DNA of 64,000 nucleotides, taken from contig JBEKTQ010000002.1 of NCBI GenBank assembly GCA_049515895.1, positions 1 through 64,000 on the forward strand, given 5' to 3'. Every line of letters begins with the position of its first letter. Positions within the stretch are counted from its first letter, which is position 1. This document shows positions 20,758 to 38,753 of this stretch, piece by piece. Source of the stretch: Candidatus Bathyarchaeia archaeon (GTDB taxonomy: Archaea > Thermoproteota > Bathyarchaeia > Bathyarchaeales > Bathycorpusculaceae). The notes under the pieces are model-generated. The model did no database searches and had not been told where the DNA came from. It was given only the letters and a program-made list of their open reading frames with translations. Position numbers and translations under genes: made by a program.

Positions 20758-23463
20758 TTATGGCCGTTTTCTTGTGACGAGTAATGCGAGTACAGCGCCG
20801 ATGATGATTATCACGATGATGATAGCGATGCCTATGTATTCGAGTGTGGTTTGCGTGGCGACGCCGCTAAGCGGGGTAGCCGTTGGTGCTGGTGTTGCAG
20901 CTGCTTGCATCACAGTAAAGCTTGTTGAGTCTGTTGACGGCCAGTAACCGTTGGTGCCAGCGAAGGCGGCGTAAACCGTGTAGTTACCTGGTATGTCTGG
21001 TGTCCACGTCAGCGTGTACATTCCGTTTGCGTTGGTTGTGGCCGTGCCTATTTGTCTGTAGTTGTTGTTGTTGTCTAAGACGTAGATGTTAACTGGAACG
21101 CCCGTGAAGTTGGCCGGTGCCGGCTGCTGCTGGTAGACGTAGCCCATCCATTCACGCATGCTTGCGTCGGAACAGACTGGAACTCCGTTTGGAAAGTCAG
21201 CTGCCTGCTCGTTTTGCTTCGTGCCTGCTGAAACGTCGGTAACTGTGCCACGTATTACTACTGGTTGTCCTGAGGCTAAACCTGCTTCTGGTGCATTAAC
21301 TGTGGTTTGGCTTGGTCCTCTGCCGACAACGTAGATTTGCGCGTCGTACCCGTTGAACCACGTGTTGTAGCCGTCTGCAGCGGCGTAGCTGAACGTCTGG
21401 AATTCGCCTGTGTACTCTGAGATGCTCCAGATTTCCTTTCCAGTTGTAGCGTTGATAGCTCGTGCTAATCCACCCTTGAAGAGTGGCGATTCAGGCGTAT
21501 GTTCCGTGGTGACAAGGTATACTGCTCCGCTGCCTATGGCGTTAACGAAGGTTGGATAGTTGGCGAAAGGAGTTTCAAGACCTGAATTTGTGCTGTTGCC
21601 TTCGCCGCCGTTGCCGTATGTCCATAATAGATTGCCTGTCTTTGTGTCATAGCAGTAGACAATTCCTGCGTATGCGCTGCTGTACATTTTTCCGTAACCA
21701 AATGCATTTGCTAAGCTGCCTGATGCTGGGCTGCCGTAGTAATCAAGGAATGCTTGAGGCACAGTTGGGCCCCAGACCTTCTGGCCGGTATCCAAGCTAT
21801 AGCCTACATATTGCGAAGTTTCTCTCCAGTTTTCAACGAAAACGCGATTTACCGGATCAATTCCTGCCTCGAGAACAGTGATGTTGTTTGCTGGCGGGTT
21901 ATAGGTCTGTTTCCAAAGTATCGAACCCAACGTTTTATGACTCTCGCTAATGCTGACAGCGAAGTACGTGTATGGTGTACTACTTTGTGGACCCATGAAT
22001 ATAGCGCCTGTTGAAGGTAGGTTGCCGCTGTAGCATAGTAATCTGTCGTCGAGGATTGCTCCGACTTGAGTGACTGGACCGCTTGGAACTCCCGTAACGG
22101 AGACGTTGAAGTCATACATAGTTGGGTTTGCTCCGTTAGTAATCGGTGGAATAACAGTTGGCGAAGTTGACAAACCTGAGTATAGATTGTCCCACAGCCT
22201 AGACGAGTTCCATTCCTGCAGATAGTAGTTTGGGTTCGATGTGGTGCCAAGGTTTACCAAATTAATTACCAGTTGTTCTCCTTCTGAACCAAGGATAGTT
22301 GTGCCGACAGGAACGTTAGTTACGTTGAACATTGGGTCTCCTGTGAATGCATCAAAAGCCATCCAAGTAAGAGGAAATACACCGAAAAGCGATGCGCCTC
22401 CAGAAGTGGCAAATACTATTGGTGGGTAAACTCCGTGTTGGTTAGGGTCTTGAACATCATAAACGTAGGCGAATGATAGTGCAGGTACATTAGAGCGAGA
22501 CCAAATAAGCTGTCCAGTTTGCAAGTTGACACAGTCGGTTGGTCCGTAAGCGCTGCCGCTTAATCCGCCTGGAACGCCTGCGAAGGATATAGGTTCAGTG
22601 TAGTAGAGCATTCCGTCAACTATTATCGGGTTCGTGTATCTTTGATTGTATGCTGAGCCTTCGAAATAGGTGTCGCCTGCAATTAAAGTTTGGTTTCCTC
22701 CGACGACTCCGCCACTGTCTAGTGGCTTAGTCCACATTACGTGGCTGGTCAATGAACCGACGACGTCTCCTGCTCCGGCTAATTGCTCGCCGTTGCCTCC
22801 CGCATTGTATGTCCCGAGGAAGCCTGTGTATCCTGGTGCGAGGTCACCTAGCCAGTTTGATGAAACAGTGTACCAGTTGGTGTTATAACCGTATATTGGG
22901 CGTGTCCAGTAAGCTGACGGCAGCGGTGTGGTTGGATAATAAGAAATTGGTGCCTGCTGAACAGTAAGAGTAGTTGAGGCGGCGCTGGGTGCATAATAAT
23001 CGCCTTCGTATGGAGCGTTAGATCCAAACATAGTGAAGGTTATGGGGAAATTGTATGTTTGACCAGGGAAGGAAAAGTTCAGAGTATAGGTGCCGACCTG
23101 AGTTGGAGTGAATGAAAAGTCTTGCGCTGACGTTGGGTCCGAAATAGTTTGGAAGGTCTGTTTTTGCACATCGCCGTTTGGCGCGGTGATGGTGAGCACA
23201 TAGTTTGCAAATCGAATATTATTTCCAAACGCTGCATTGAAGATTACTTGGTTAAGCCAAATGATAATTTCTACCGATTGGCCCGTTCCGACTGGGTTAG
23301 TTGAAACGCTAATGTACGCGAATGTTGGAATTGTTTCTCCCGGCGTTTGTGCTTTAGCAATTGGTACGAGCATCAATGATGCTGACATAGAAAGTATGAA
23401 GAATATAGCGATTGCAATTGCTCCTGTTTTGCTTTTGAAAGATTTCATTAATTTACTTGACAT
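20758..23463 (-). CDS. large secreted PQQ-like beta-propeller surface protein with C-terminal membrane anchor
   Basis: Signal peptide, Ig-like N-domain, repeated D..TG..LW motifs, Thr/Pro linker, TM helix + TRKRP tail. Confidence 0.85.
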   Translation of the reverse strand: MSSKLMKSFKSKTGAIAIAIFFILSMSASLMLVPIAKAQTPGETIPTFAYISVSTNPVGTGQSVEIIIWLNQVIFNAAFGNNIRFANYVLTITAPNGDVQKQTFQTISDPTSAQDFSFTPTQVGTYTLNFSFPGQTYNFPITFTMFGSNAPYEGDYYAPSAASTTLTVQQAPISYYPTTPLPSAYWTRPIYGYNTNWYTVSSNWLGDLAPGYTGFLGTYNAGGNGEQLAGAGDVVGSLTSHVMWTKPLDSGGVVGGNQTLIAGDTYFEGSAYNQRYTNPIIVDGMLYYTEPISFAGVPGGLSGSAYGPTDCVNLQTGQLIWSRSNVPALSFAYVYDVQDPNQHGVYPPIVFATSGGASLFGVFPLTWMAFDAFTGDPMFNVTNVPVGTTILGSEGEQLVINLVNLGTTSNPNYYLQEWNSSRLWDNLYSGLSTSPTVIPPITNGANPTMYDFNVSVTGVPSGPVTQVGAILDDRLLCYSGNLPSTGAIFMGPQSSTPYTYFAVSISESHKTLGSILWKQTYNPPANNITVLEAGIDPVNRVFVENWRETSQYVGYSLDTGQKVWGPTVPQAFLDYYGSPASGSLANAFGYGKMYSSAYAGIVYCYDTKTGNLLWTYGNGGEGNSTNSGLETPFANYPTFVNAIGSGAVYLVTTEHTPESPLFKGGLARAINATTGKEIWSISEYTGEFQTFSYAAADGYNTWFNGYDAQIYVVGRGPSQTTVNAPEAGLASGQPVVIRGTVTDVSAGTKQNEQAADFPNGVPVCSDASMREWMGYVYQQQPAPANFTGVPVNIYVLDNNNNYRQIGTATTNANGMYTLTWTPDIPGNYTVYAAFAGTNGYWPSTDSTSFTVMQAAATPAPTATPLSGVATQTTLEYIGIAIIIVIIIIGAVLALLVTRKRP

Positions 23464-23745: not shown

Positions 23746-26631
23746 TTATGGCCGTTTTCTTGTGACGAGAATAGCAAGCACTGCGCCGATGATGACTATC
23801 ACTATGATAATCGATACGAGTCCGTACATGAGTGTGTTGTTTGAGGCTAAGCCTGCGACCGGTGTTGCCGTTGGTGCGATTGTAGGCGATGGGTTGCCAG
23901 TGTAGAAGTGCGTTTCAGCTGATGATGGCCAGTATCCGTTGGTTCCTGCGAAGTTTGCGTAGACAGTGTAGTTTCCTGAGATGTCTGGAGTCCATGTTAG
24001 GCTGTAACTGCCGCTTGTGTCTGTTGTGGTTGTTCCTATGGTTCTGTAGTTGCCGTTGCTGTCTAAGACGGATATCGTTACTGGTACGCCTGTGAAGTTG
24101 GTTGGCATAGGTTGCTGCTGGTAGACGTATCCCATCCAAGTTTGCATGCTTGCGTCAGAGGATACTGGAACTCCCCTTGCGAAGTCAGCTGCCTGTTGTG
24201 TCTGCTGTGTTCCCGCTGAAACATCCATTACTGTGCCGCTGATGACTGCTGCTTGTCCGAATGATAGCCCTGCGTTTGGTGCTGTGACTGTTGTGACGCT
24301 GGGTCCGCGGCCTACGCAATAGAGTTGGTTGTCATAGCCATTCGGGAACACTGAGAAGCCGTCTGCCATGGCGTAGCTGATTGTTGTGAACTCGCCTGTA
24401 TAGTCGGATAGCGTCCAGATTTGTTGGCCTGTGGTTTCGTTGATTGCGTGTGCTAACGCACCTTTGTATATTGGGTCAGTGATGGTGTGTTCTGTCGAGA
24501 CGAGGTAGACTACTCCGCCGCCGACTGCGTTGATGAATGTCGGGTAGTCACCGTAGAAGACGTTTAAGCCTGCTTTGGTGCTGTTGTCGCTGCCGAAGGG
24601 TCCGTTTCCGAAGGTCCACTCGAGCTTGCCTGTTGTGTCGCTGTAGCAAAAGAGAACTCCTCCGAAACCGCTGTAGAAGAAGTGACCGTCTGCCTCTTGG
24701 GCGTAGATTTGGGATGGAGCTGGTTGACCGTAGTAGTCCCATGAAGTCAATGATGGTGTGGGTGAAGTCCAGAGCTGTTTACCTGTGTTGAGGTCGTATC
24801 CAACATAGCTCAGGGTTTCTTGGTGTGCTTCCAAGAAGACGTTTGTTGTCGGGTCGACGCCTGCGTAGAAGACAGTGACGTTACCTGGCGGTGCTTGTTC
24901 CACTTGTGTCCACAGGAGTTTGCCGATGCTACCGGGGGCAAGGCTGATTCCGTAGTACGTGTATGGTGCCCAGCTTGGAGTAGTGAATGCTCCGGGGCTG
25001 GCTGGGAATGTTCCTCTTTCAAGTAGCATTATTTTGCCCGGAATCGCAGCTTCGATGGTTGGGGTTGTGCCTTGATCGTCTATGCCTGAGACTGTTACGT
25101 TCCAGTCATACATGTACAGTGGGCTGCTCGGGTTCACTACGTTCCCGTAGACAGTATAGTTGTTGGTGGGATAGTTATCTAGACCATTGGTGATTCCTGC
25201 TGGTTCATTTAGATCATATCCTGCTGGTACACTGACTGTTCGTTGAGGCCCACCGGTTACGTATTGGGCTTGTGCAGTGGTTATGGCTGCGCCGGTTGCT
25301 GTTGACATGTTGTAGAGGGTTGGGGTGCTGTCGATGGCACCTGTCCATGGGTCGAAGGTGTTGTCCCATAGTCTTGATGAGTTCCATTCACCCAGGTAGA
25401 AGTTTGGCGCTGAGGAATTTCCAACATTGGTGAAGATATATCTTAAGTGTTCACCCATTAAACCCAACGCTTCGTAACCTGAAGGTGCACCTGAGACGCT
25501 GAACAATGGTAAACCGGTGTATGCGTCGTATGCTTTTGCGAAGTTGCTTGTAAAGAGGATTGCTGGGTAGACTCCGTGTTGGTCAGTTTGCCATACGTTG
25601 TAGATGTAGGCGAATGAAAGCGTACCTATCTGGGTTGATGTCCAAAGAGTCTTGCCTGTCGCCAAATCTACTGCTGTGCAGGGTCCCGAGGTTGATCCTG
25701 TGAATGAAACTGGCGGGTTGTAATACAGTATGCCGTTGCAGATTATTGGGTTGGTAATTCTTTGGCAGTATGCTGAACCCTCAAAGTAGCCTGCGCCCTG
25801 TCCTGTTTGGAACAAGTTGCCGCCCACTACTCCGCCTTCCTGAATCGGCTTTGTCCACATGACATGCCCAGTTAATGGACCTACCGCATCGCCTGGGTAC
25901 CGTTCCACATCTGAACCCCAACCACCTGAACCGGTGGAGAAGGCAGTTAGGTCTCCGGAACCTGTGACTGGACTGACGGGTGCGCCAGTTCCTAGCCAGT
26001 TAGACGAAATCGTGTACCATGCTGTGTTTTCACCGTAGATTGGGCGTGTCCAATAGGAAGTTGGTAATGGTGAGCTGCCTATGGCCGCTGGAATCGGGTT
26101 TTGTTGTACTGTTACGGTTGTTGATACTTGGCTTGGCTCGTAGTAGTCGCCGGCGACCACTGATCCGGGTTTACCGTCTCCGTTAGCGCCGTATACTTGT
26201 CCTGGGAAAGTGAAGATGAATGTATAGGTGCCGACTGCGGCGGGTGTATAGGTTGTGAATTGGTTTGCTGTTGGGTCTGTGACTGTTGGGAAAATGGTTG
26301 TGGATACTTTTCCGGAGGGGTCAATTACGGTAAGGTTGTAGTTTTGCCATCTGTAGCTGTTGTATAGAGCTGAATATGAGACTGCGGAAGCGGCCCCAGA
26401 ATCATAGCCCACACCGTAGATCATGTTGAGCCACATGTAGATAGTTAAGGTTTGACCGACACCGATTGGAGTGGGTTCCGCTGAAATGTAAGCATAAGTT
26501 GGAATCTGGTAGGGCGGTGTGTGAGCGTTAGCGTTCGGAATGAATGCAATTGAAGATGCCATCAAGAATGCCAAGAAGATTGCAAAGATCGCTGCTATTG
26601 TTTTTTTGTTAATTTTTTGCAAATTTCTCAT
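23746..26631 (-). CDS. large secreted PQQ-like beta-propeller surface protein, paralog of 20758-23463
   Basis: Same architecture; shared YWTRPIYG, HVMWTKP, YFEGSAY, GRGPS, FAGTNGYWPS, LVTRKRP. Confidence 0.85.
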   Translation of the reverse strand: MRNLQKINKKTIAAIFAIFLAFLMASSIAFIPNANAHTPPYQIPTYAYISAEPTPIGVGQTLTIYMWLNMIYGVGYDSGAASAVSYSALYNSYRWQNYNLTVIDPSGKVSTTIFPTVTDPTANQFTTYTPAAVGTYTFIFTFPGQVYGANGDGKPGSVVAGDYYEPSQVSTTVTVQQNPIPAAIGSSPLPTSYWTRPIYGENTAWYTISSNWLGTGAPVSPVTGSGDLTAFSTGSGGWGSDVERYPGDAVGPLTGHVMWTKPIQEGGVVGGNLFQTGQGAGYFEGSAYCQRITNPIICNGILYYNPPVSFTGSTSGPCTAVDLATGKTLWTSTQIGTLSFAYIYNVWQTDQHGVYPAILFTSNFAKAYDAYTGLPLFSVSGAPSGYEALGLMGEHLRYIFTNVGNSSAPNFYLGEWNSSRLWDNTFDPWTGAIDSTPTLYNMSTATGAAITTAQAQYVTGGPQRTVSVPAGYDLNEPAGITNGLDNYPTNNYTVYGNVVNPSSPLYMYDWNVTVSGIDDQGTTPTIEAAIPGKIMLLERGTFPASPGAFTTPSWAPYTYYGISLAPGSIGKLLWTQVEQAPPGNVTVFYAGVDPTTNVFLEAHQETLSYVGYDLNTGKQLWTSPTPSLTSWDYYGQPAPSQIYAQEADGHFFYSGFGGVLFCYSDTTGKLEWTFGNGPFGSDNSTKAGLNVFYGDYPTFINAVGGGVVYLVSTEHTITDPIYKGALAHAINETTGQQIWTLSDYTGEFTTISYAMADGFSVFPNGYDNQLYCVGRGPSVTTVTAPNAGLSFGQAAVISGTVMDVSAGTQQTQQAADFARGVPVSSDASMQTWMGYVYQQQPMPTNFTGVPVTISVLDSNGNYRTIGTTTTDTSGSYSLTWTPDISGNYTVYANFAGTNGYWPSSAETHFYTGNPSPTIAPTATPVAGLASNNTLMYGLVSIIIVIVIIGAVLAILVTRKRP

Positions 26632-26810: not shown

Positions 26811-27851
26811 ATGAATTTAAATAGAATGAAAAAATACCTTGAACGTCAACGAGGGGTATTAGCCTTAACCGAACAAATTAGTATAATCCAAGCAAAAATC
26901 CTAAAAGAGTTGCTGGCCGACGGGCGCCAGACTGACAATGAAATTGCCAAAAAAATAGGCGAAACAAAAGACAGCGTTAAGAAAAACCTTCGCAAAATGG
27001 AAGAAACTGGAATAATTGGCGGTGCAACAATACACATTAATTACAAGAGTTTCGGTTATAAGGCAGTAGCGCACATTCTAATCAACCTTGACTCGCAGCA
27101 AGAAGATCAACTTGTCAATTATCTGCAGAAAATGCCTGAAGTTTACTCATTCTACAATAGGGGAGTCAAAGGAAACTGGGATGTTATTACAATCATTAAA
27201 ACACTTGAACAGTTGAACGTCATCAAGGACCAATTCAAAAGACACTTTTCAATTTTGGAAATGAGAACTGCAATCTGGACAGATGTAAAAGAAATGAATT
27301 ACAACCTGACGATAACAAACGAGAATACGAAAACGCGAGATGCAGCAGACAATTATCAAGTAAAGGTTCAGAGAGGTAGTCCTAAATCAATGACTCTCGA
27401 TCAGGTTGACCTAAAAATATCTGATAAGCTCTCTGAGAACGGACGGGTGCCCATGGAAACACTCGGAAGAGAAATAGGAATCTCATCCTACACCGTCAAA
27501 AGAAGATACGAAAAACTTAAGAAAAACGGAGTATTAAAAGTAACAATTCAAGTTAACCCAAATAAGATTGGGTACCAAGCAATGTGCGTTTTTTTCACAG
27601 TAACCTCGCATGAAAACTCCTTCGCAATTATTGAAAAAATCAGCATGATACCAAATATCATAAGCATTATGAAAACGACTGGAGACTACGACTTGCAAAT
27701 TTGGGCAATGATAAAGGATTTAGGTCAATTTTTTTCGGTTCAGGAACAGCTGGGAAAAATTCAAGGCATAACGAAAATGGATACAGAAATGTGGTCATTA
27801 GAAAAATGGGAAAAATGGCCAAGCCCTCGCCAGTATATATCTACCTTTTAA
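26811..27851 (+). CDS. double-length Lrp/AsnC regulator (two wHTH-RAM units)
   Basis: ILKELLADGR..EIAKKIG and DLKI..LSENGR..LGREIG HTHs, each followed by a RAM-like domain (TTGDYDL). Confidence 0.88.
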   Translation: MNLNRMKKYLERQRGVLALTEQISIIQAKILKELLADGRQTDNEIAKKIGETKDSVKKNLRKMEETGIIGGATIHINYKSFGYKAVAHILINLDSQQEDQLVNYLQKMPEVYSFYNRGVKGNWDVITIIKTLEQLNVIKDQFKRHFSILEMRTAIWTDVKEMNYNLTITNENTKTRDAADNYQVKVQRGSPKSMTLDQVDLKISDKLSENGRVPMETLGREIGISSYTVKRRYEKLKKNGVLKVTIQVNPNKIGYQAMCVFFTVTSHENSFAIIEKISMIPNIISIMKTTGDYDLQIWAMIKDLGQFFSVQEQLGKIQGITKMDTEMWSLEKWEKWPSPRQYISTF

Positions 27852-27981: not shown

Positions 27982-28965
27982 TTGCCTAAAATCAAAGAGC
28001 TCGATTCGCAAATTCTAAAAAGCATGCTAAAAGATGGTCGAACTGGTTACCATGAAATAGCAGAGCAGTACGATGTGTCAACAAACAAGATTTGGAAGCG
28101 CTGCAAGGCGATGCAGAAAAAAGGGATAATGAAGGGCGCAACAGTACAGATGAATTTTGGCCTTTTCGGATATGAGGCACTCGCGACTTTGCTCATCAGC
28201 GTCGAGGCTCAGCAGCTCGAACACACAATGGAGCTCATTAAAGACATACCTGAGGTGCGCGCTTACAGGCAGTATAACAGCGTCTACAATATTAGAGCAG
28301 TCGCAAGTCTGAGGAACCTTAACGAACTGGATTATGTGAAACAGATCATCAGGCGGAAATTGCCTATAATGGGTTTAAAAACTTACATCTGGACAGGAGT
28401 CAGAAACATTCCTGAAAACTTGAACTTCACTGGTGCTCAGAAGAATACCGACATAACAAACACGACGAATCTATGTCCTTCGGTGGTTTTGCCGAGTGAA
28501 AGAATCACAATTGATGAGGTGGACAAGGAAATAGTGGCAAAGCTCACTGTAGACGGGCGAGCTTCATTCACTAAACTTGCACGTGAAATGGGATTGTCCA
28601 CTGACACAGTTGTAAGAAGATACCACAGGCTCAAGGAAAACTGCGCAATAAAGATTTCACTCCAAATAAACCCCAATAAAATTGGGTACACATCGTTATT
28701 AGATTTCAACATAGCTTTCACAGCACCCAGCGGCGTGTCAAAAGCGGTAGTTGAGTCACTTGCCAAAATTCCCGATGTTATTATAATTGTAGAAACAAGC
28801 GGTGATTATGATTTGCAATTGACGGCAATGGTAAGAGACGCCGCGCAATCATTCGACATCCAAGATCAAATCTCAAGAATCAGCGGCATAACAAAAATTG
28901 AAGTCAGCGCAAGAAGAATTCCCGAGATGTGGCCAACGTCGCAGCAGTACATGTCAACATTCTGA
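27982..28965 (+). CDS. double-length Lrp/AsnC regulator, paralog
   Basis: DSQILKSMLKDGR and DKEIVAKLTVDGRASFTKLA, TSGDYDL; shared WP..QY.STF C-terminus. Confidence 0.88.
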   Translation: MPKIKELDSQILKSMLKDGRTGYHEIAEQYDVSTNKIWKRCKAMQKKGIMKGATVQMNFGLFGYEALATLLISVEAQQLEHTMELIKDIPEVRAYRQYNSVYNIRAVASLRNLNELDYVKQIIRRKLPIMGLKTYIWTGVRNIPENLNFTGAQKNTDITNTTNLCPSVVLPSERITIDEVDKEIVAKLTVDGRASFTKLAREMGLSTDTVVRRYHRLKENCAIKISLQINPNKIGYTSLLDFNIAFTAPSGVSKAVVESLAKIPDVIIIVETSGDYDLQLTAMVRDAAQSFDIQDQISRISGITKIEVSARRIPEMWPTSQQYMSTF

Positions 28966-29175: not shown

Positions 29176-29847
29176 ATGCGAAGATTGCACATTTTTCTCA
29201 TTATTCTTATAGTGGCCATAGGCATCCTCCTCAGCCTTGTCGCAATTAGCCTGTATCTATCGGCAACCGCTTCTACCTATTATCAGTCAAGTTGGATGGG
29301 GGCGATGTGGCGGAGCATGGGGCTGGGTGGATCAACTGGCAGTGGAAACAATGGTGGAATGGGAGGAATGATGGGCGGAAACGGCACCAGAACCACGGCA
29401 ACACCTAATCTCTGGATAATCCCGACAACTCTTATGGCAGCAGCTATAATCGGCATAATAGGTTTTGGCTTTTACATCGTTCTCCCAGAAATCAGAAATA
29501 CCAATAGAACCTGCACACCAACCCGAAACGAAACGGTTTCGTTAATTCCGATGAAAACTTCGGATATAAGTGCCCCTGTTCCAAAAGCCTCATCTAACTC
29601 TTGCGAAGTAATCTTGAAGACCATGACACCTGAAGAACAAAAAGTCCTCAGCACATTGATTGCTCATCAGGGCAAATACCTTCAAAAGTACGTGGGCAAA
29701 GAAGCCGGACTCAGTCGGCTCAAAACCCACCGGATCGTAGCTCGTTTCGCGGAACGCGGTATAGTTACGGTAAAACCGCTGGGAAACACAAACGAAGTCA
29801 CAATCTCAGACTGGGTTAAGGGCGCAGAGACACAAAGCTCAACCTAA
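29176..29847 (+). CDS. two-TM membrane protein with Gly/Met-rich loop and C-terminal winged helix
   Basis: TM1, GGMGGMMGG loop, TM2, then MTPEEQKVL..Q..GLSRLKTHRIVARFAERGIV..GNTNEV. Confidence 0.75.
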   Translation: MRRLHIFLIILIVAIGILLSLVAISLYLSATASTYYQSSWMGAMWRSMGLGGSTGSGNNGGMGGMMGGNGTRTTATPNLWIIPTTLMAAAIIGIIGFGFYIVLPEIRNTNRTCTPTRNETVSLIPMKTSDISAPVPKASSNSCEVILKTMTPEEQKVLSTLIAHQGKYLQKYVGKEAGLSRLKTHRIVARFAERGIVTVKPLGNTNEVTISDWVKGAETQSST

Positions 29848-30060: not shown

Positions 30061-30208
30061 ATCCTTTGACTTTTGTTCACTCGTTTTAATTTTTTTAGAC
30101 TTTTTTTAACTTTTCTTGACTTATTTTGACTTTTCTTAACTTTTTTTGACTCAACCTACAAACAAATCAAGCCCCAAACCAAAAAACCAACCCAAAACAC
30201 AAACAAAA
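30061..30208. repeat. nine in-register 10-nt units (TTTTTTTRAC-like) followed by A/C-rich core shared with 7510-7570
   Basis: atcctttgac ttttgttcac tcgttttaat ttttttagac tttttttaac ttttcttgac ttattttgac ttttcttaac tttttttgac. Confidence 0.75.
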
Positions 30209-30409: not shown

Positions 30410-31591
30410 GTGCCGACGCTCATGAAGTTGAAAGGCTCGCCCCTCGATCTGAACATTTATGAAGCCTCTGAAACGCTGACAAATAAGCATTTTAAACAAT
30501 TCAGAAGCCCCGAATTTGAAAGATTTTATCTTCCCCATAGTATGAGGCCTTTTACGGATCTCAATCCTTTAGGCACGAAAGAGTTTATCGCGGACGATAA
30601 CAGAGGAGCAGTTTCACCATTACCCATTTTGGAAATGGATGGCAAAGACTTTTACCTTTCAGTTAAAGGCATAGGTTCCACAACAAACCCATTTTCAACA
30701 CAACTTCTCGGGAAAGCCGAAATGTGCAGCCTATTGAAGGATTCCATGCTGAAAAACAAAATCGTGAATTCCGAAGGAATCGCTCCACGATATATTACAG
30801 GGGAATTATGGTTAAGAGGCTCTCCATATGGAGGGCAAGGCCTCGAGCACGCAACCACTTCTATGAGAGTGTCAGAAATGGCTGACCTTACGACCATTCA
30901 TGGATTTCGAGTTGCGCCTGTTGTGAAAATTGTTTTCCTTCCGAAAGACCTTGAGAATGAAATCAAAAAAATATATTGGTATCGCAGATTCAGGGGCAGA
31001 ATGGTTCAGGAATTAAGGTTGGTTCCTTCTAATGTGCGGATTTATTTTCACTCTGGGAGCACTGTCGGCGGAAATATACGCTCAGTTTTTGACCTATTTG
31101 AAATAGACAGCATTGATAAATCTGTAGATTTTCTAAAGAATTTCGTTAAAAGCGGCCTTGCATACCTAACTCTGTTTTCCAGGACGCTAAAAAGCAACGA
31201 AGACGGAACTTTCTGCGGATTGGATTTCTACGATGTCTGGCTAGACAAGGATGCAGTCCTCGCTCAGGACGGCACTATCTACTTTGTAGATCTTGAAGGC
31301 TTGGAATGGATTACTGTTGAGGAAAAGAAAATCTCGGAAAAGATAGACGACCAGATATACAGATCCTTATACGAATTCATGTATGCATATGAACAGATAG
31401 AACGGGAACGATTCGCAAGGTTCGGAGGGCTGGCGGACAGGAAAGTGCAGTTCGAATATCTCCTCAAAGAGGCCCTAAAAGATGACGAAATTATTGACCT
31501 CGCAAGCGAGGGACAAAGCCTTAAACTGGTCGTGGGTAACATCCTTGGGGAGCAACGTTTAACTAAGAAATTCCCAATCATGGATCGGTAA
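30410..31591 (+). CDS. hypothetical protein, probable SelO-like kinase-fold enzyme
   Basis: DDNRGA, LSVKGIGST, LRLVPSNVRI, DKDAV..DG..FVDLE in the same order as SelO motifs; ORF certain, family tentative. Confidence 0.55.
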   Translation: MPTLMKLKGSPLDLNIYEASETLTNKHFKQFRSPEFERFYLPHSMRPFTDLNPLGTKEFIADDNRGAVSPLPILEMDGKDFYLSVKGIGSTTNPFSTQLLGKAEMCSLLKDSMLKNKIVNSEGIAPRYITGELWLRGSPYGGQGLEHATTSMRVSEMADLTTIHGFRVAPVVKIVFLPKDLENEIKKIYWYRRFRGRMVQELRLVPSNVRIYFHSGSTVGGNIRSVFDLFEIDSIDKSVDFLKNFVKSGLAYLTLFSRTLKSNEDGTFCGLDFYDVWLDKDAVLAQDGTIYFVDLEGLEWITVEEKKISEKIDDQIYRSLYEFMYAYEQIERERFARFGGLADRKVQFEYLLKEALKDDEIIDLASEGQSLKLVVGNILGEQRLTKKFPIMDR

Positions 31592-31596
31592 TAAAA

Positions 31597-33153
31597 ATGC
31601 ACTGCAACGACGCAAGAACATTTTTTTCCCAGATAGCCGAAAAATCAATTTCAATACAAATCCAACAAACCGATATGGATTATCTCAGAAATGGCGGCTA
31701 CCTCTCAGTGATGCAAAAAGAGGATTACGATCGGGCTTCAGCCGAAGTTTCAAACTTGACGCAAATGAACATTGACTTGGTGAATGCAGAGAACGCAGAC
31801 AGAAGCGCAAAAGCGACTCTGCAAGAAGAGGACAAGAAAACTCATTCAATCAAGTTCTATTTCGAAGGAAAGGAAACCAAAGAAGCTGAACGCGAAAAAG
31901 AGGAAAGCGAAAAGAGCGTTGTCTCAAAAATGGACGCTGACATCGCCGAAAGAGACACAAAGATAAATGAGCTTATTCAGAAGAAATCCATCATTGACCG
32001 GATGGTGCCATATGGCGGCCAATATCTGTCACTTACTGGTCTGGGAGTAATTACGCTTAACGATCTCAACGTCAGGAACTACAGGGTGGCTGACAGCGAA
32101 TTTTCGGACTTCGTTGAAGAAACCCGAGCGACATATAGCGAATTGCGGTCGATAGCAGACAGAGGTAGCTTTCACGTTTCTAACCTAAGAATTAAGTTTC
32201 CAGAAATGGATCTCTCGCAACTCTGGAGCGTGTCAATTGGTTTGGCCAAACTTCAAGGCGACCCCAACCAAATCGGTCAAAGATTTCTTTTTGCCCTTGA
32301 TCTTATCAAGCATTTCGATAGCACCCTTCAAAATAAGATGATGGCAGCGGAAATCATGGCCTCCTCCAGGGCAGATCCCGCTCAATCGCCAAATAATTCT
32401 GATCTCCAGAACCTGTCAGAACTTTTGGTTAAACTTGACCGCCAACTTAGGCATGACGCCCATGTTCCTAAACCACTTTCAGTAGGCGTTGCCGCCACTG
32501 TCTTGTTTGGTCGGCGATTTGACGGCACTTTTTCAACTGACAGATTTGTGGAATTTTCCAAAATGACCTCTTCGTTTGAGTCAGCCGCGATACTTTCCAT
32601 AACAAATGAGCCTTCAGACCAACTAGCCGGTAAATTCCAATCATTCAGATCACTATTTAATTCCTGGGGATTTCAGGTATCAGAGGATACCGAACTTGCT
32701 TCTGCATATTTGTCGATTTCTGATTTGGCACCAGATGAGGTCAAGTTGAAAATGTCAATAATTGAAAATGGACTTAGGAATTATCTGGAGTATCCACTTG
32801 TAGCTTCGGCAGTGCTTGCTTCAATACCGACCCTTGAAGCTAATGAAACTCTTGACCTGATGGAAAAGGCATATTCTTTGCTCGGGTCATACGCTGCAGA
32901 TCTAGAACGTTCTGAAATGATAAGCCTTGCAGTAAGGATGATTCATGGAATCAAAAATGAACTTGTAAAGCAGCTTGATCCAACCGCGACTATTGTGAAA
33001 ACTCCAGTGCAGTTTACCTATGTCCCAACAAACATTTTCTTCCTATACTATGCACCGCTAATCATTGCACATTCATCATACTATTCGACATTCAGCGGCA
33101 TTGGAGGCTTCCATCCGGCCCATGTACATGGTGTAGGGGGCTTCATGGGTTGA
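31597..33153 (+). CDS. hypothetical protein: coiled coil, helical repeats (DUF4003-like), Gly/His tail
   Basis: 518 aa; charged heptad segment near aa 45-130, Ala/Leu helices, ends GIGGFHPAHVHGVGGFMG. Confidence 0.55.
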   Translation: MHCNDARTFFSQIAEKSISIQIQQTDMDYLRNGGYLSVMQKEDYDRASAEVSNLTQMNIDLVNAENADRSAKATLQEEDKKTHSIKFYFEGKETKEAEREKEESEKSVVSKMDADIAERDTKINELIQKKSIIDRMVPYGGQYLSLTGLGVITLNDLNVRNYRVADSEFSDFVEETRATYSELRSIADRGSFHVSNLRIKFPEMDLSQLWSVSIGLAKLQGDPNQIGQRFLFALDLIKHFDSTLQNKMMAAEIMASSRADPAQSPNNSDLQNLSELLVKLDRQLRHDAHVPKPLSVGVAATVLFGRRFDGTFSTDRFVEFSKMTSSFESAAILSITNEPSDQLAGKFQSFRSLFNSWGFQVSEDTELASAYLSISDLAPDEVKLKMSIIENGLRNYLEYPLVASAVLASIPTLEANETLDLMEKAYSLLGSYAADLERSEMISLAVRMIHGIKNELVKQLDPTATIVKTPVQFTYVPTNIFFLYYAPLIIAHSSYYSTFSGIGGFHPAHVHGVGGFMG

Positions 33154-34178
33154 ACTCAAAATCCCTTGTGATCACAGTCTTACTTTTCCTGGCTCTCTTT
33201 GCGGCTCCCGTTGCAGCAACTTACAGTCCCCATGTTGGAGATCATTTCAGCTACTACGAGGTTCAAGACCTTGGAAGCGGCACAGGTGATTACGCTGGAT
33301 ACAGCGAACACACAATCACTAACGGAGTGGAAACAGTAAACGGCGTCAATGCAGATGGAACCGTAGCCGCAAGCTATAGTTACTCATGGACTTGGAACAA
33401 CAGCACAGGCGCAACAGAAAATGGAAACTCATCTGGAGATTTCACCTTTTCACCCGTCACTTTCCTTTACATCAACGGAACTGACAACCAGACTGGGTAT
33501 GTTAACCCAACTGTCTGGTTCTGCATGGATAACTCGATCCCGAATGGTGGTACCTTTTCCCTTCTAAACACCGAGATGACGGTCATTTCCAGAAATTATA
33601 GCTATTATCTTCAATCCCAGAACAGAAATGTAAACACGATTTTTGCTCAAGGAACCTCAAGCTACCAAAGAAACGATGTATACGGACAATTCAGCGCCGA
33701 CTACACATGGAAAGCTTACTTTGACCCGTCTACAGGATACATCATAGGATACAGCTATAATGAACAGGATACCAGCCCATCGGGAACCGGGTTCACCTAC
33801 ACCGAAAACCTATATGTGAATTCAACTAGCTATCCGTTAACAGCCGCAACTGGTAGCAATCCAGGCGGGGCAAATTCAACCCCAACACAATACATCAGTT
33901 ACATCATTGTAATAATCGTAGTCCTTGTGGTAATTGCAATTCTAATTTACGCGCTTTCAAGACGAAGAGCACTTCCCAAACATTCTTACCAGCAATCGTA
34001 CCAACAACAATCTCCTCCGCCAGGTCCGCCCCCAGAAAAAATTGATTTGACTCCAAAACAACCGCCGGTACAGCAGATCGTTGTTAAAGAAGTTGTGAAG
34101 GTAAAATGCCAATACTGTGGAGCACTAATCGACTCCACAGCTCAGACCTGCCCTATATGCGGAGCCCCCAGAACATAG
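33150..34178 (+). CDS. single-pass membrane protein with extracellular beta domain and cytoplasmic Pro/Gln linker + zinc ribbon
   Basis: Signal peptide, Tyr/Thr/Asn-rich domain, TM + RRR, QQQSPPPGPPP, CQYCG..CPICG; 4-nt overlap with previous gene. Confidence 0.75.
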   Translation: MNSKSLVITVLLFLALFAAPVAATYSPHVGDHFSYYEVQDLGSGTGDYAGYSEHTITNGVETVNGVNADGTVAASYSYSWTWNNSTGATENGNSSGDFTFSPVTFLYINGTDNQTGYVNPTVWFCMDNSIPNGGTFSLLNTEMTVISRNYSYYLQSQNRNVNTIFAQGTSSYQRNDVYGQFSADYTWKAYFDPSTGYIIGYSYNEQDTSPSGTGFTYTENLYVNSTSYPLTAATGSNPGGANSTPTQYISYIIVIIVVLVVIAILIYALSRRRALPKHSYQQSYQQQSPPPGPPPEKIDLTPKQPPVQQIVVKEVVKVKCQYCGALIDSTAQTCPICGAPRT

Positions 34179-34187
34179 ATGGGTACA

Positions 34188-34958
34188 CTAAATTTTAATT
34201 TCCTTCTTTCTATCCCAATCCTTCCTTAGATACTGAAAAACCTGTCCAGACAGCTGCATATGCGCTTTCATGACGTTTCCTGAAGAAGCAAGATTGTAAC
34301 GGGAAATCTCGCAGAATGCCAAGCGGGCACGTTTTGACTTAAGCCATAGAAGCCGCGCATTCAAAATATCTTTCCCCATCCCTGTTCTCCTAAATTGAGG
34401 TTTCACATAAAGAGAATGCAGTCTTCCAACACCATTCACAAGTGAAACCCAGCCTAACCCTGCAATTTCGCTGTTTAGCTCAACAATGAAGCATCTATCC
34501 CCGTTCTTAAGCGCAATACTTACCCACCTCTTGTTTATCCCCGGATGCGTCAAAGCCATGAATCTTTCAATCTCGTTTAGGTGCCCCTTTTCGGCCACTG
34601 AAATTTCGTGGCTGAACCTGTGAGCAAGGGCAAGATTTTCCAGTTCTACGGTGTAAATATCGTAGATTTCACTTTCATGCTCGGTTTTCATCTCAGAGAA
34701 GAGCCAATTGAACGGTTTCAATTCGTAAAAGTAGTCAAATATCTCCCTTGATCTTGTAAAAATTGTTCCGCTCTTCTCCGAGCCGTCATAAATGAATAAG
34801 CCTGAGGTGTCCTCGTCGGAAGTTCTGGTTACGTAAGCTTCACCGCCTATATCCAGAATTTCTCTGGTGTAATATTGCAGATAAGGCTCAAAAAACGAGA
34901 AGCCAACTGGAAAAACCAAGTTAACATCAGATGCACTCAATAGTTGGGAAACTTCCAT
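34188..34958 (-). CDS. GNAT-family N-acetyltransferase
   Basis: LHSLYVKPQFRRTGMG acetyl-CoA motif A, N.AS. Confidence 0.82.
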   Translation of the reverse strand: MEVSQLLSASDVNLVFPVGFSFFEPYLQYYTREILDIGGEAYVTRTSDEDTSGLFIYDGSEKSGTIFTRSREIFDYFYELKPFNWLFSEMKTEHESEIYDIYTVELENLALAHRFSHEISVAEKGHLNEIERFMALTHPGINKRWVSIALKNGDRCFIVELNSEIAGLGWVSLVNGVGRLHSLYVKPQFRRTGMGKDILNARLLWLKSKRARLAFCEISRYNLASSGNVMKAHMQLSGQVFQYLRKDWDRKKEIKI

Positions 34959-36073: not shown

Positions 36074-38455
36074 TTATTTGCGGCCAAGCAAAAGCCGTAT
36101 CCTGCTAGCTAGCTGGTATAGTAGGCTGCTTATAGCGACGGCGAAAGCTGGAAACACCGGCATTATATACCAGTAGATCTTTGTCTGCGCAAACGAGAAC
36201 ACAAACAACACGATTGCCATCCACAGGAAAATCAGCGTATCCTGTTTCCTACTTTTAGTGAAGGCTCCGAATGCGCAAAGTCCAGCGGCGAAAGGCAGAA
36301 GAGCTAGCCAGAGCCAGTTTTCGTGGTAAGCCAAGTAGTTTAGGTAAAAGAGGTAGCCTGCAGCGTGACCCTCAATGGTGCTGGCTGACCGCGTAACGTC
36401 AGCGTAGATGAAGTACCAGTGCCAAAATTGATTTCCAAATCGGGCAGCCATGTAGATCAGCCAGGGCGAAAACAGCAGGAGCCCAACGCTCCAGAAAAGA
36501 GTAAAAGTCTTCGTGAAAATAAAACGCAAGCTCTTTCTTGTTGCAATCAAGTACACAAAGATGATGAGTGGAATCAACAGTGCAGCAATCTGCTTTGTCA
36601 TTAAAGCCAACCCAAAAAAAATGCCGCTTAAGATCGCGCCTCGAAATGAATTTTGTCTATCTTCGGTTAGAACAAAAAAGTATATGCTTGCCAAAGCGAA
36701 GCAGGTTAACGGGACATCGGTCATGGCGTATCTCGCGAAAACGTCGTAGGTTATGAAGGTGCCTAAAACAAGTGCCGACATGAATCCAACAGGGCGGTTG
36801 TAGAGTTTTTTTCCCAAGTAGAAGACAAGGACAAGAGAAAGGGCGCCGAATCCAGCCGTCCAAATCCTTGAGGCAAAATTCGTAACTCCGAAGACCTGGT
36901 AGCTAATAGACATAAGCCACATCAACAGTGGCGGCTTCCCTATCACGAAGGAAATGGCTCCGTCAGCCCAAGGGGTTAGGTAATCTCCCGTTTTAACCAT
37001 GTGATAAGCCCATTGAGAATATGTTTGCTCGTCGGCAATCTGAAGAACCCCGCTTCCCAAGTTAACGAAGAATATTGCTGAAAACGCCAGAATTGCCAAA
37101 ATGAAAATGGCGTCAGCGTGCAACTGGATCCAAGACGGGTTTTGCCCTTTAATGCCGATTGATACATTTTTTCGGTTCCGCCGTCGAGTAACGTACGCGT
37201 AACGAGTTACTGCAAAAATGGCAACTGCGCCTGTGGCAGATGCAATAGAGTCAAACACTACTGTTGTCCGAGGAAGGGGATTGGCGGGTTGCGAAAGATG
37301 CGGTTGACCTGTAGAGTTTGTTAAAGCCAAAGCGTAAACTCCGGAGTCATCTGAACCGATGTACAAAATGTCGTTTGCAATAGCAGGTGATGATTCAATT
37401 ATGTTTCCTGTCTGGTAACTCCACTCCTTGGCTCCGGTTGCTGCGTTAAAGCAGTAAATGTTGTTGTCTTGAGAGCCCACATACACGTTGCCGCCTGCCA
37501 CTGCCGGAGAAGACGTAACCCAGTACCCAGTTGGACTCTGCCAAATCCTGCTGCCCGTTGAAGCGTTGAGGCAATAAACATAATTGTCTTCGGAGCCAAC
37601 GTATACGCAGCCATAAGCGACAGCTGGAGAAGATTCCACCTCATCGGCTGTTTGGTACCTCCAAATTTGTTCGCTTGTGGAAGCGTTCAGGGCGTAAATG
37701 TAGCCATCGTAAGAGCCGACGTACACATAACCGTTGTAGGCGGAGGGAGAAGAAGAGTCAGACGTTCGAAGGGGATGACTCCAAATCTTGATGCCCGTGG
37801 ACGCGTTAAAAGCATAAACGTAGCCTTTGCCGCTGGTAATATATACTGTACCGCTTGAAACTGCTGGCGAGGAATTCATCGGGTCAAGGTTTTGCAAATT
37901 CCAAATCGTGTCGCCGTTTGTAGCGTTCAAGGCGCAGAGATTATTTTGGGAACCCACGTAAACAATGCCGTTTACAACTGCAGGGGAGGACCGCACTGGA
38001 CTGCCGATGAGAGTTCGCCAAAGAGGTACTCCAGTCATTATGTTTAGGCAGTATAGGTATCCGTCGTCAGCACCGATGTAGACACTGTAGTTATAGATAG
38101 CTGGAGACGACCACACTTCATTCCTGATTGGAAACTTCCAAATTACTCTTCCGTCGGAAGCGTTGAAGGCGTAAACTTGGCTGTTCCTTGAGCCGACAAA
38201 AACGCAACCGTATGCAAAAGCGGGGGAAGACTGTACCATTCTTCCGGTTGAATAATTCCAAAGCAGTTTAGTGGAATCCGATAAGGAGATATTCGCCGCG
38301 TAGCCACTGTGGCTTGAATCCTGTCGGAACATTGTCCAGGCGCCATTGCTGGAACCTGCGCTCGCTGAGCTGCCGAAAACCATCGACATGCTGGTGACTT
38401 GAATTAGGACAAAAGACAACATCAGCGCGATTAGTAGCCAGATGTGTTTTTGCAT
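36074..38455 (-). CDS. fusion of PQQ-like (BamB-type) beta-propeller and GT39/ArnT-PMT glycosyltransferase
   Basis: W.MFR.D..HSG, about 8 SSPA..G.VYVGS repeats, TM, then DE..Y, KPPL..WL, F.SR, R.AMTD, LMTK; start MQKHIW at 38455. Confidence 0.88.
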   Translation of the reverse strand: MQKHIWLLIALMLSFVLIQVTSMSMVFGSSASAGSSNGAWTMFRQDSSHSGYAANISLSDSTKLLWNYSTGRMVQSSPAFAYGCVFVGSRNSQVYAFNASDGRVIWKFPIRNEVWSSPAIYNYSVYIGADDGYLYCLNIMTGVPLWRTLIGSPVRSSPAVVNGIVYVGSQNNLCALNATNGDTIWNLQNLDPMNSSPAVSSGTVYITSGKGYVYAFNASTGIKIWSHPLRTSDSSSPSAYNGYVYVGSYDGYIYALNASTSEQIWRYQTADEVESSPAVAYGCVYVGSEDNYVYCLNASTGSRIWQSPTGYWVTSSPAVAGGNVYVGSQDNNIYCFNAATGAKEWSYQTGNIIESSPAIANDILYIGSDDSGVYALALTNSTGQPHLSQPANPLPRTTVVFDSIASATGAVAIFAVTRYAYVTRRRNRKNVSIGIKGQNPSWIQLHADAIFILAILAFSAIFFVNLGSGVLQIADEQTYSQWAYHMVKTGDYLTPWADGAISFVIGKPPLLMWLMSISYQVFGVTNFASRIWTAGFGALSLVLVFYLGKKLYNRPVGFMSALVLGTFITYDVFARYAMTDVPLTCFALASIYFFVLTEDRQNSFRGAILSGIFFGLALMTKQIAALLIPLIIFVYLIATRKSLRFIFTKTFTLFWSVGLLLFSPWLIYMAARFGNQFWHWYFIYADVTRSASTIEGHAAGYLFYLNYLAYHENWLWLALLPFAAGLCAFGAFTKSRKQDTLIFLWMAIVLFVFSFAQTKIYWYIMPVFPAFAVAISSLLYQLASRIRLLLGRK

Positions 38456-38753
38456 TGCTATCGTTAAAAGACACCGCCCCAAGTACATATTAAAGTAATT
38501 GAATTTCAACCGTAATGGTTTCAGGTTCCTGTTTTTTCAATCTTTAAGTTTTGCGCGGATTGTTGAGACAACAAGTATTGATAAGTCACCGCAGAGAAGT
38601 ATTAGCTCTCTCGAAAGTGCACCTGCGTGGTTAGCTGCCAAACTGCGGTAAGAACCTTACCAAGCCTGAAAAATTGAGAACGACTTCTATAGTATTGCGC
38701 TTTACTCATGCGATAACTGCGGCTCCAGGTTTAAAGTAGCCTACTAAGCTATT

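Follow-up and report, generated by a model that had tools for sequence, protein, structure and literature searches.

What does a compact group of four genes in a Bathyarchaeia genome encode, and which reaction does the enzyme at its head carry out? The genes occupy positions 30,410 to 34,958 of a 64,000-nucleotide stretch of DNA, hereafter the window (positions 1 to 64,000 of contig JBEKTQ010000002.1, assembly GCA_049515895.1, Candidatus Bathyarchaeia archaeon). An initial annotation, made from the letters alone, had described three tightly coupled genes led by a SelO-like kinase-fold enzyme and facing a convergent acetyltransferase of the GNAT family. The reading that we favor, with a probability of about 50%, is that the four genes encode a membrane-anchored modification module in which the gene 1 product is a nucleotidyl transferase that uses adenosine or uridine monophosphate (AMP or UMP). 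The list of open reading frames (ORFs) agrees with the annotation on the four genes, their coordinates and their spacing: the gap between genes 1 and 2 is 5 nt, genes 2 and 3 overlap by 4 nt, and the convergent stops of genes 3 and 4 are 9 nt apart. The features of the locus are as follows.

30410..31591, forward strand: gene 1, predicted protein-kinase-like enzyme with SelO/YdiU as nearest fold; ORF of 393 amino acids (aa), GTG start.
31597..33153, forward strand: gene 2, coiled-coil N-terminus and helical body; ORF of 518 aa.
31972-32112, forward strand: conserved segment of gene 2, residues 126-172, from the alignment of both family groups.
33019..33150, forward strand: C-terminal tail of gene 2, residues 475-518; candidate membrane anchor and candidate modification target.
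33150..34178, forward strand: gene 3, type I membrane protein; ORF of 342 aa, TTG start.
34098..34169, forward strand: cytoplasmic zinc ribbon of gene 3, residues 317-340, CxxC...CxxC (PF13248, E 7.1e-6; PF13240, E 1.2e-5).
34188..34958, reverse strand: gene 4, two-part GNAT acetyltransferase; ORF of 256 aa.

The start of gene 1 is probably the ATG at 30422 and not the GTG at 30410, because most of its homologs, among the 120 matches listed, are 389 aa long and begin at residue 5.

Gene 1 matched no Pfam family at E 0.1 and no NCBIfam family, and no relative was found in the Protein Data Bank (PDB) by sequence or profile (phmmer, hmmsearch). Its own family is a small one, with 1338 proteins at E <=0.001 in a collection of 5.8 billion proteins, all of them unnamed, and an exhaustive search recovered 123 representatives among 1.84 billion. 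Many homologs from other species are 77-88% identical to gene 1. When 44 diverse family members were searched, no Pfam family matched, and no kinase or SelO (PF02696) model did so even at E 10. An AlphaFold2 (AF2) model built from a 44-sequence family alignment was confident, with a predicted local distance difference test score (pLDDT) of 93.8 and a predicted template modeling score (pTM) of 0.92. With Foldseek this model found, at E 2e-4 to 5e-3, nonribosomal-peptide-synthetase-independent siderophore (NIS) synthetases, YdiU/SelO and protein kinases. In a Foldseek-independent comparison with 48,161 representative chains, the top match was P. syringae SelO (6eac_A; Z 14.2, 261 aligned residues, root-mean-square deviation (rmsd) 4.1), followed by SbnC (Z 12.2) and AcsD (11.9), and ordinary kinases did not exceed 9.3. 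A second structural comparison placed eight SelO/YdiU entries (Z 12.7-15.3) above every other family; NIS synthetases reached Z 9.6-12.8 and the best ordinary kinase 9.6. The best SelO/YdiU matches had Z 14.2-15.3 with about 260 residues aligned and rmsd 4.0-4.1. The structure search thus puts SelO/YdiU first, and the kinase or SelO fold that the initial annotation had proposed is present in the model. As modeled, gene 1 is a protein-kinase-like enzyme with SelO/YdiU as its nearest solved structures.

Other searches were also carried out. A language-model search brought up a cluster named MchC at 0.93 (rank 20), in which the SelO Pfam family is present in 35% of the members. Nothing in a viral structure library matched gene 1 at E <=0.001; a torovirus replicase fragment in the viral fold library, at E 0.017, was set aside as not meaningful. 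The genome to which the window belongs is 100% complete and gave no PF02696 match in a genome-wide family search, and thus no canonical SelO; none was found in the 151 sampled genomes of the phylum (Thermoproteota) either. Gene 1 is not a member of PF02696 and yet, in all likelihood, works like SelO; it would be the founding member of an unclassified protein-kinase-like clade nearest to SelO/YdiU.

The motif strings on which the SelO assignment had been based were all found in the translation: DDNRGA at residues 62-67, LSVKGIGST at 83-91, LRLVPSNVRI at 202-211 and, in the C-terminal part, DKDAV at 279-283, DG at 287-288 and VDLE at 293-296. Their order is that of the SelO motifs. Across the 44-member alignment, R65, G87, G141, P170, Q200, P206, R210 and D294 are invariant, while K86, R203 and S207 (43/44 each) and E296 (41/44) are nearly so; the D281 column holds 42 Asp and 2 Asn. 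Given this conservation within the family, the strings lie far beyond chance, and R65, K86, R203, R210, D281, D294 and E296 are candidate catalytic residues. In P. syringae SelO, the account in PMC8097203 has K113, R176 and R183 hold the gamma-phosphate of a flipped adenosine triphosphate (ATP), E136 support K113 through a salt bridge, and N253 and D262 bind metal. The E. coli SelO equivalents, at a constant offset of 6, are K107, R170, R177, E130, N247 and D256. For the comparison with gene 1, a SelO profile was made of 14 diverse sequences from plasmid records; the E. coli SelO homologs were all at least 79% identical among the 120 matches listed. The best local hhalign path is non-significant (Prob 3.6%) and pairs gene 1 R65 with R87, K86 with K107, R203 with R170 and R210 with R177 of E. 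coli SelO, the last two pairs falling inside a common R-[LV]-[VA]-P-S-[NH]-[VL]-R string. The path was counted because the fold match backs it independently. For the C-lobe, the proposed equivalence of the gene 1 and SelO motifs is one of secondary-structure position only. In the gene 1 model, D281 lies directly before a strand and D294 two residues past the next strand, positions that we take, from the topology of kinases, to be those of the metal-binding Asn and the DFG Asp. On this reading, two acidic or amide candidate metal ligands would sit at strand positions equivalent to those in SelO.

Could gene 1 be an ordinary phosphotransferase, a protein or small-molecule kinase that moves a gamma-phosphate to a module partner or a metabolite? 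Such an enzyme would have the protein-kinase-like fold, for which hundreds of kinases matched gene 1 at Z 8-9.6, and it would carry, as gene 1 does, a conserved beta-strand Lys and a pair of Asp placed like the catalytic-loop metal ligand and the DFG Asp. Nonetheless, ordinary kinases rank under both AMP-transferring groups, the GxGxxG loop is missing, and the hairpin found in its place bears an invariant Arg (D-[GD]-N-R) as in SelO. There also appears to be no conserved Asp at the HRD position, judging from the strand positions and from alignment columns V276 and W277. The RLVPSNVR string has two invariant Arg that match SelO on the Prob 3.6% path, and to our knowledge this pair has no counterpart in ordinary kinases. 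With this balance of evidence, an ordinary kinase seems to us highly unlikely.

The relationship of the four genes to each other was analyzed in 50 loci with a gene 1 relative, taken from species-representative genomes. Their labels are Bathyarchaeota/-ia, Thermoplasmatota, Methanomassiliicoccales, Nitrososphaerales and, in one case, bacterial. All four genes are found in 43 of the 50 loci, and the co-occurrence in other archaeal genomes on which the initial proposal depended is therefore borne out by the synteny survey. Six of the other seven loci are cut by a contig end; locus L010 has no GNAT match although 1.7 kb of contig remain. Three gene orders were observed. In the first, represented by the window, genes 1, 2 and 3 are followed by the convergent GNAT gene. 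The second, gene 2-gene 3-gene 1-GNAT on one strand, is found in nine of the 50 loci, of which two are truncated at a contig end. The third came from a metagenome scan queried with a more distant gene 1 subgroup (30-40% identity to gene 1). The scan returned 80 loci: 32 of the window type (group I; 26 complete), 27 with the order [gene 3::GNAT]-gene 1-gene 2, in which gene 3 is fused to the GNAT, and 21 on contigs too short to classify.

The fusion ORF measures about 470-900 aa, mostly 550-650, by a simple ORF finder that probably over-extended some of them at the 5' end. It consists of the gene 3 ectodomain and transmembrane (TM) segment followed by the whole GNAT protein, and its immediate downstream neighbor is gene 1, with a gene 2-like ORF coming after that. 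Gene 1 is downstream of the fusion in 23 of the 27 loci, the other four being cut. A gene 2 relative was detected by hidden Markov model (HMM) in 12 of the fusion loci, and three more have an ORF of the same size bearing the same tail. In a quick maximum-likelihood tree of gene 1, the second and third orders each form one clade with a Shimodaira-Hasegawa-like approximate likelihood ratio test (SH-aLRT) value of 100. Two rearrangements and a fusion have left the four components together, which argues strongly that they share one function. The fusion also argues that the acetyltransferase sits at the cytoplasmic face of the membrane protein.

Gene 3 consists of a signal or anchor segment (residues 6-24), a Tyr/Gly-rich ectodomain, a TM segment (252-270), a Pro/Gln linker and the zinc ribbon; seven N-x-S/T sequons lie between the two hydrophobic segments. 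The ribbon passes the PF13240 cut-off (25.3 bits against 25) and falls just under that of PF13248 (25.7 against 27), and its four Cys are kept in all 13 group I rows of the alignment. The hydrophobic segments and the PF13240 match agree with the earlier description of gene 3 as a single-pass protein with a cytoplasmic zinc ribbon. Gene 4 is a GNAT (PF00583, 34.4 bits against a cut-off of 20.7, E 2.9e-8). Its GNAT domain lies in the C-terminal part (residues ~125-250) and has the acetyl-CoA loop R-R-T-G-M-G in the translation; in an alignment of 20 sequences R190 is invariant and G193 is present in at least 90%. Searched as a profile against the PDB, gene 4 matched RimI (9mto_A, E 8.3e-9), phosphinothricin acetyltransferase (1.4e-8) and archaeal Nat enzymes. 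In its catalytic half, gene 4 thus most closely resembles RimI and the N-terminal acetyltransferases; it may acetylate a protein. It scores only 21.9 bits with NCBIfam RimI, far under the cut-off of 86.4, and it differs from RimI by an additional N-terminal domain of about 120 residues, conserved and of no known family, as well as by its fusion to a membrane protein in one lineage.

Neither Pfam nor NCBIfam linked gene 2 to a known family. Its N-terminus (residues ~1-125) is charged and coiled-coil-like and its body (~165-460) forms a helical repeat or toroid in the AF2 model (pLDDT 62), as the initial annotation had surmised for a coiled-coil/helical-repeat protein. The Atlas model of gene 2 resembles that of a DUF4003 cluster over 304 residues (TM-score 0.78 by cluster length, 0.52 by query). 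Sub-threshold matches to DUF4003 (PF13170, a family of Bacillota) were obtained with 3 of 15 gene 2 relatives (E 0.056-0.2; 11.5-13.4 bits against a cut-off of 28.1); none of the relatives reached the PF13170 cut-off, and the window protein had no match to it. Gene 2 differs from DUF4003 by its coiled-coil N-terminus and its His-rich tail. The full-text literature on DUF4003 yielded a genome report only. Solved structures gave no informative match for gene 2: Foldseek found nothing in the PDB at E <=0.001, returning only designed helical toroids, and the best VIA-wide structural match (Z 7.9 over 89 residues) is noise for a helical protein.

The tail of gene 2 consists of a weakly hydrophobic stretch (hydropathy peak 1.33 at residues 473-491), the motif HPxHxH and a final Gly. 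In 26 aligned sequences of groups I and II, H506 and P507 are each present in 24, H509 in 26 and H511 in 23; the final residue is Gly in all 26, and the residues before it vary. On these alignments, the tail is the most conserved short element among the partner proteins. Within the segment 126-172, T147, G150, R160 and R163 are kept in 25-26 of 26 sequences of both groups, and it is modeled at pLDDT <50; this segment may fold only against a partner.

These observations suggest the following mechanism. The four genes would encode one membrane-associated protein-modification module. Gene 3 would span the membrane, with a glycosylated ectodomain outside, possibly with a signaling role, and the zinc ribbon inside. 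The GNAT would act at the cytoplasmic face of gene 3, the two being a single polypeptide in one lineage, and gene 2 would be held at the complex, or presented to it, by its hydrophobic, His-rich C-terminal tail. Gene 1 would bind the nucleotide in the SelO orientation, with Lys86, Arg203 and Arg210 on the distal phosphates and Asp281 and Asp294 on the metal, and would move a nucleoside monophosphate (NMP; AMP or UMP), rather than a phosphate, onto an acceptor with release of pyrophosphate. The acceptor would most likely be a His, Tyr, Ser or Thr side chain of a module partner, chiefly in the gene 2 tail. The roles of sensor, scaffold and substrate, which the initial annotation had named, are candidate assignments for the components.

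AMP-type chemistry is favored because both nearest fold groups attack the ATP alpha-phosphate: SelO is reported to AMPylate with a flipped ATP (PMC8097203), and NIS synthetases are described as working through acyl-adenylates (PMC9356276). For the acceptor, the strongest lead is the gene 2 tail: no other short element of the partner proteins is as conserved, and the tail is rich in Tyr and His, the residues that YdiU is reported to modify (10.1101/692707). A precedent for one built-in substrate is the NiRAN domain of nidoviruses, a SelO-like kinase-fold domain said in PMC8017715 to place NMP onto its dedicated partner nsp9. NiRAN differs from gene 1 in being viral and part of a polymerase polyprotein; nevertheless, the NiRAN-nsp9 pair indicates that a kinase/SelO-like fold can serve a single built-in substrate. 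A narrower form of the proposal is that a SelO-like clade with a linked substrate nucleotidylates the His-rich tail of a tail-anchored gene 2 protein at a membrane complex of a glycosylated, receptor-like protein with a tethered acetyltransferase, so that an outside signal is written inside as nucleotidylation and acetylation. We put this form forward tentatively, as possible but doubtful.

Several observations weigh against a SelO-type nucleotidyl transferase acting on gene 2. No sequence method ties gene 1 to SelO, whether Pfam PF02696, HMMER against the PDB or hhalign. In the last, the gene 1 family gave Prob 1.2% with a shallow enterobacterial SelO alignment and Prob 3.6%, locally, with the 14-sequence alignment, and the two C-lobes gave Prob 0.1%. 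In the 44-member alignment no conserved counterpart of the SelO salt-bridge Glu (E136) was found, nor any conserved Glu in the helix that follows PYGGQG; positions 146 and 156 hold Glu in just 14-15 of the 44 sequences each. By position, D281 is preceded by Lys (39/44) where SelO has Asp; the catalytic loop thus reads K-D instead of D-N and is unlike that of SelO. The donor need not be ATP, since SelO has been reported to hydrolyze NAD+ (PMC13391479) and YdiU crystals bind NAD. NIS synthetases align over 279-300 residues of gene 1, reaching its C-terminus, against about 260 for SelO/YdiU, and for this reason the acceptor might yet be a carboxylate. Furthermore, mutual binding of the four proteins and the choice of gene 2 as substrate are proposals. 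SelO/YdiU proteins are also longer than gene 1 (about 480 aa compared with 393), which lacks their C-terminal regulatory region, and gene 1 differs from them in having three dedicated partner genes and in occurring in Thermoproteota.

The greater span of the NIS alignments would fit another explanation, which makes gene 1 a ligase that adenylates carboxylates, like MchC/MceJ or the NIS synthetases, and the GNAT its transferase partner. The parallel is microcin E492, whose C-terminus receives a siderophore through MceJ, a SelO relative, and the acyltransferase MceI. By analogy, gene 1 might adenylate a carboxylate, for example that of the terminal Gly of gene 2, and the GNAT-fold protein might help couple it to an amine or hydroxyl. 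NIS synthetases (AcsD, SbnC, IucA/IucC, DesD) are the second-best fold group, with Z up to 12.8 and acyl-adenylate chemistry. MchC, which also gave its name to the cluster found near gene 1 by the language model, is presented in PMC3281104 as a distant SelO subfamily that partners the acyltransferase MchD/MceI, and PMC6071977 describes MceC, MceI and MceJ as joining salmochelin to a microcin C-terminus. In MchC/MceJ, as may be the case for gene 1, a divergent SelO relative is paired with an acyltransferase-type protein, there acting on a protein C-terminus. In the second gene order, gene 1 and the GNAT are adjacent and co-directional, and the invariant final Gly of gene 2 would offer a carboxylate.

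This explanation is weakened by other evidence. SelO/YdiU outscore NIS synthetases in both structural searches. NIS synthetases are about 580 aa long with an additional N-terminal 'thumb' domain, their rmsd to gene 1 is 5.0-5.6, and gene 1 aligns solely to their residues ~130-560, without the three-domain thumb-finger-palm architecture. No siderophore genes were found in the neighborhood of gene 1, and none of the 44 family members had an IucA/IucC-type Pfam match. HlyC-type acyltransferases share the GNAT fold. Gene 4, however, is nearest to RimI-type acetyl-CoA-dependent N-acetyltransferases, keeps the acetyl-CoA loop and is not HlyC-like. MchC/MceJ are enterobacterial, belong to a secreted-toxin pathway and have an HlyC-type partner in place of a RimI-like GNAT. 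Gene 2, with 518 aa, is no short precursor peptide. Gly-rich tails behind a hydrophobic segment are common in membrane proteins, and the terminal Gly may have no chemical role. We consider a ligase unlikely, and a nucleotidyl transferase serving a membrane-anchored module is the reading retained.

Some individual loci have features of their own. In L003, L014, L040 and L046 the four genes are present but split into fragments of 150-250 aa, which may be sequencing or assembly frameshifts or decaying copies. The locus with the bacterial label (L013) is an 8.5-kb contig in a metagenome-assembled genome (MAG) of Candidatus Acidoferrum that carries a gene 1 81% identical to the archaeal gene, followed by gene 2; its label is most likely a binning error rather than the result of transfer. 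Three loci of the fusion type encode an ADP-ribosylglycohydrolase (PF03747, E ~1e-72) two genes beyond the downstream end of the cassette; in L089 and L096 an Eco57I-like methylase comes next. The hydrolase could be an eraser enzyme, or its presence a coincidence.

L072:11464-12486: ADP-ribosylglycohydrolase.
L089:7163-8308: ADP-ribosylglycohydrolase.
L096:10359-11318: ADP-ribosylglycohydrolase.

The distribution of the module is patchy and cassette-like, and the four genes would move together between archaea of soil and peat. Of 401 sampled genomes of the class, 23 proved to have the gene 1 family. By rank, these include 4 of 40 others from the genus, 5 of 103 from the taxonomic family and 17 that belong to a different family. 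A single-protein search of a phylum-wide sample found it in the window's genome alone (1/301). The region at ~29.2-35.6 kb yields scattered DNA matches shorter than about 200 bases in all five same-genus genomes without gene 1, in which the right flank matches at 68-80%. This poor matching, together with the presence of the family in only 4 of 40 other genomes of the genus, supports the earlier placement of the genes in an accessory region. No clean insertion site could be defined, as the left and right flanks are not adjacent in these five genomes. The genes that flank the cassette are not conserved between loci: among the 50 loci, the Lrp gene that flanks the cassette in the window recurs in one and the PQQ-PMT protein in six, and the DUF7343 protein and a 141-aa protein in none.

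Such a distribution would also fit an anti-virus or conflict system that couples a membrane sensor to modifying enzymes, whatever their chemistry. The unrelated flanks, the presence of the same cassette in MAGs labeled Bathyarchaeota, Thermoplasmatota and Nitrososphaerota, and the Eco57I-like methylase and ADP-ribosylglycohydrolase just downstream in related fusion-type loci are compatible with a role in defense. However, PADLOC-DB 2.0 holds no family for genes 1, 3 and 4 and gave one chance-level match for gene 2 (E 0.024, 11.8 bits), and no nuclease, protease, pore or other recognizable effector is present among the components. The identity of many gene 1 homologs between species (77-88%) is high for a conflict system, and in the window the module is surrounded by regulators and by genes for surface and glycosylation functions rather than by defense genes. 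Two pattern scans found no gene 1 relatives on viral contigs, and PHROGs showed no family link for genes 1 and 2. A defense function is, in our judgment, decidedly improbable.

The domain content of the neighboring genes indicates that the module lies among genes for surface and glycosylation functions. Downstream, a pyrroloquinoline quinone (PQQ) beta-propeller is fused to a PMT_2 dolichyl-phosphate-mannose glycosyltransferase (36074-38509, reverse strand), and upstream there are two giant ORFs of 900-960 aa with PQQ and immunoglobulin-like domains (20758-23463 and 23746-26631, both on the reverse strand). Two adjacent genes just upstream of the module (26811-27851 and 27982-28965) each encode a double Lrp/AsnC regulator with two HTH_AsnC domains and one ligand-binding domain; in a same-genus genome, DNA that matches the two genes is separated by 220 kb from the match to the right flank. 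The 223-aa product of 29176-29847, a putative membrane-tethered transcription factor, combines two hydrophobic segments and a Gly/Met-rich loop with a DUF7343 winged helix at its C-terminus. Between this gene and gene 1, about 270-350 nt upstream of the latter, a 10-nt unit (TTTGACTTTT) is repeated in tandem 8.7 times at positions 30065-30151, which gives one copy for each helical turn, and an A/C-rich stretch follows. In 26 related loci no similar array precedes gene 1, and the array was therefore rejected as a part of the module; specific to this genome, it could bind a regulator or bend the DNA.

SelO is conserved from bacteria to humans, and its substrates and regulation are still debated. 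No description of the gene 1 family or of the module was found in the full-text literature, a scope outside which subscription journals and bioRxiv supplements fall. In the same literature, nothing on archaea was found under 'SelO-like/YdiU-like' proteins, nothing that joined an archaeal kinase-like protein to a GNAT and a zinc ribbon, and no match that linked Bathyarchaeia/-ota to SelO, AMPylation or pseudokinases was present among those listed. What is new is the clade, the failure of the SelO sequence test, the fixed partners and the fusion form; the fold is known, and so is the chemistry that is likely. Gene 1 would thus represent a separate clade of the SelO fold, unrecognizable by sequence and accompanied by three fixed partners, which provide a defined set of candidate substrates and a clear bench test that housekeeping SelO lacks. 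The assignment would give a fold and a testable chemistry to more than 1000 'hypothetical proteins' of peat and soil archaea, add a fourth branch of AMP-transferring kinase-fold enzymes beside SelO, MchC and NIS synthetases, and supply the first genomic partners for the function-less DUF4003-like fold. If nucleotidylation of the gene 2 tail is true, this would be the first SelO-type enzyme with a built-in set of partners and, for Thermoproteota and soil archaea, the first pathway of protein NMPylation.

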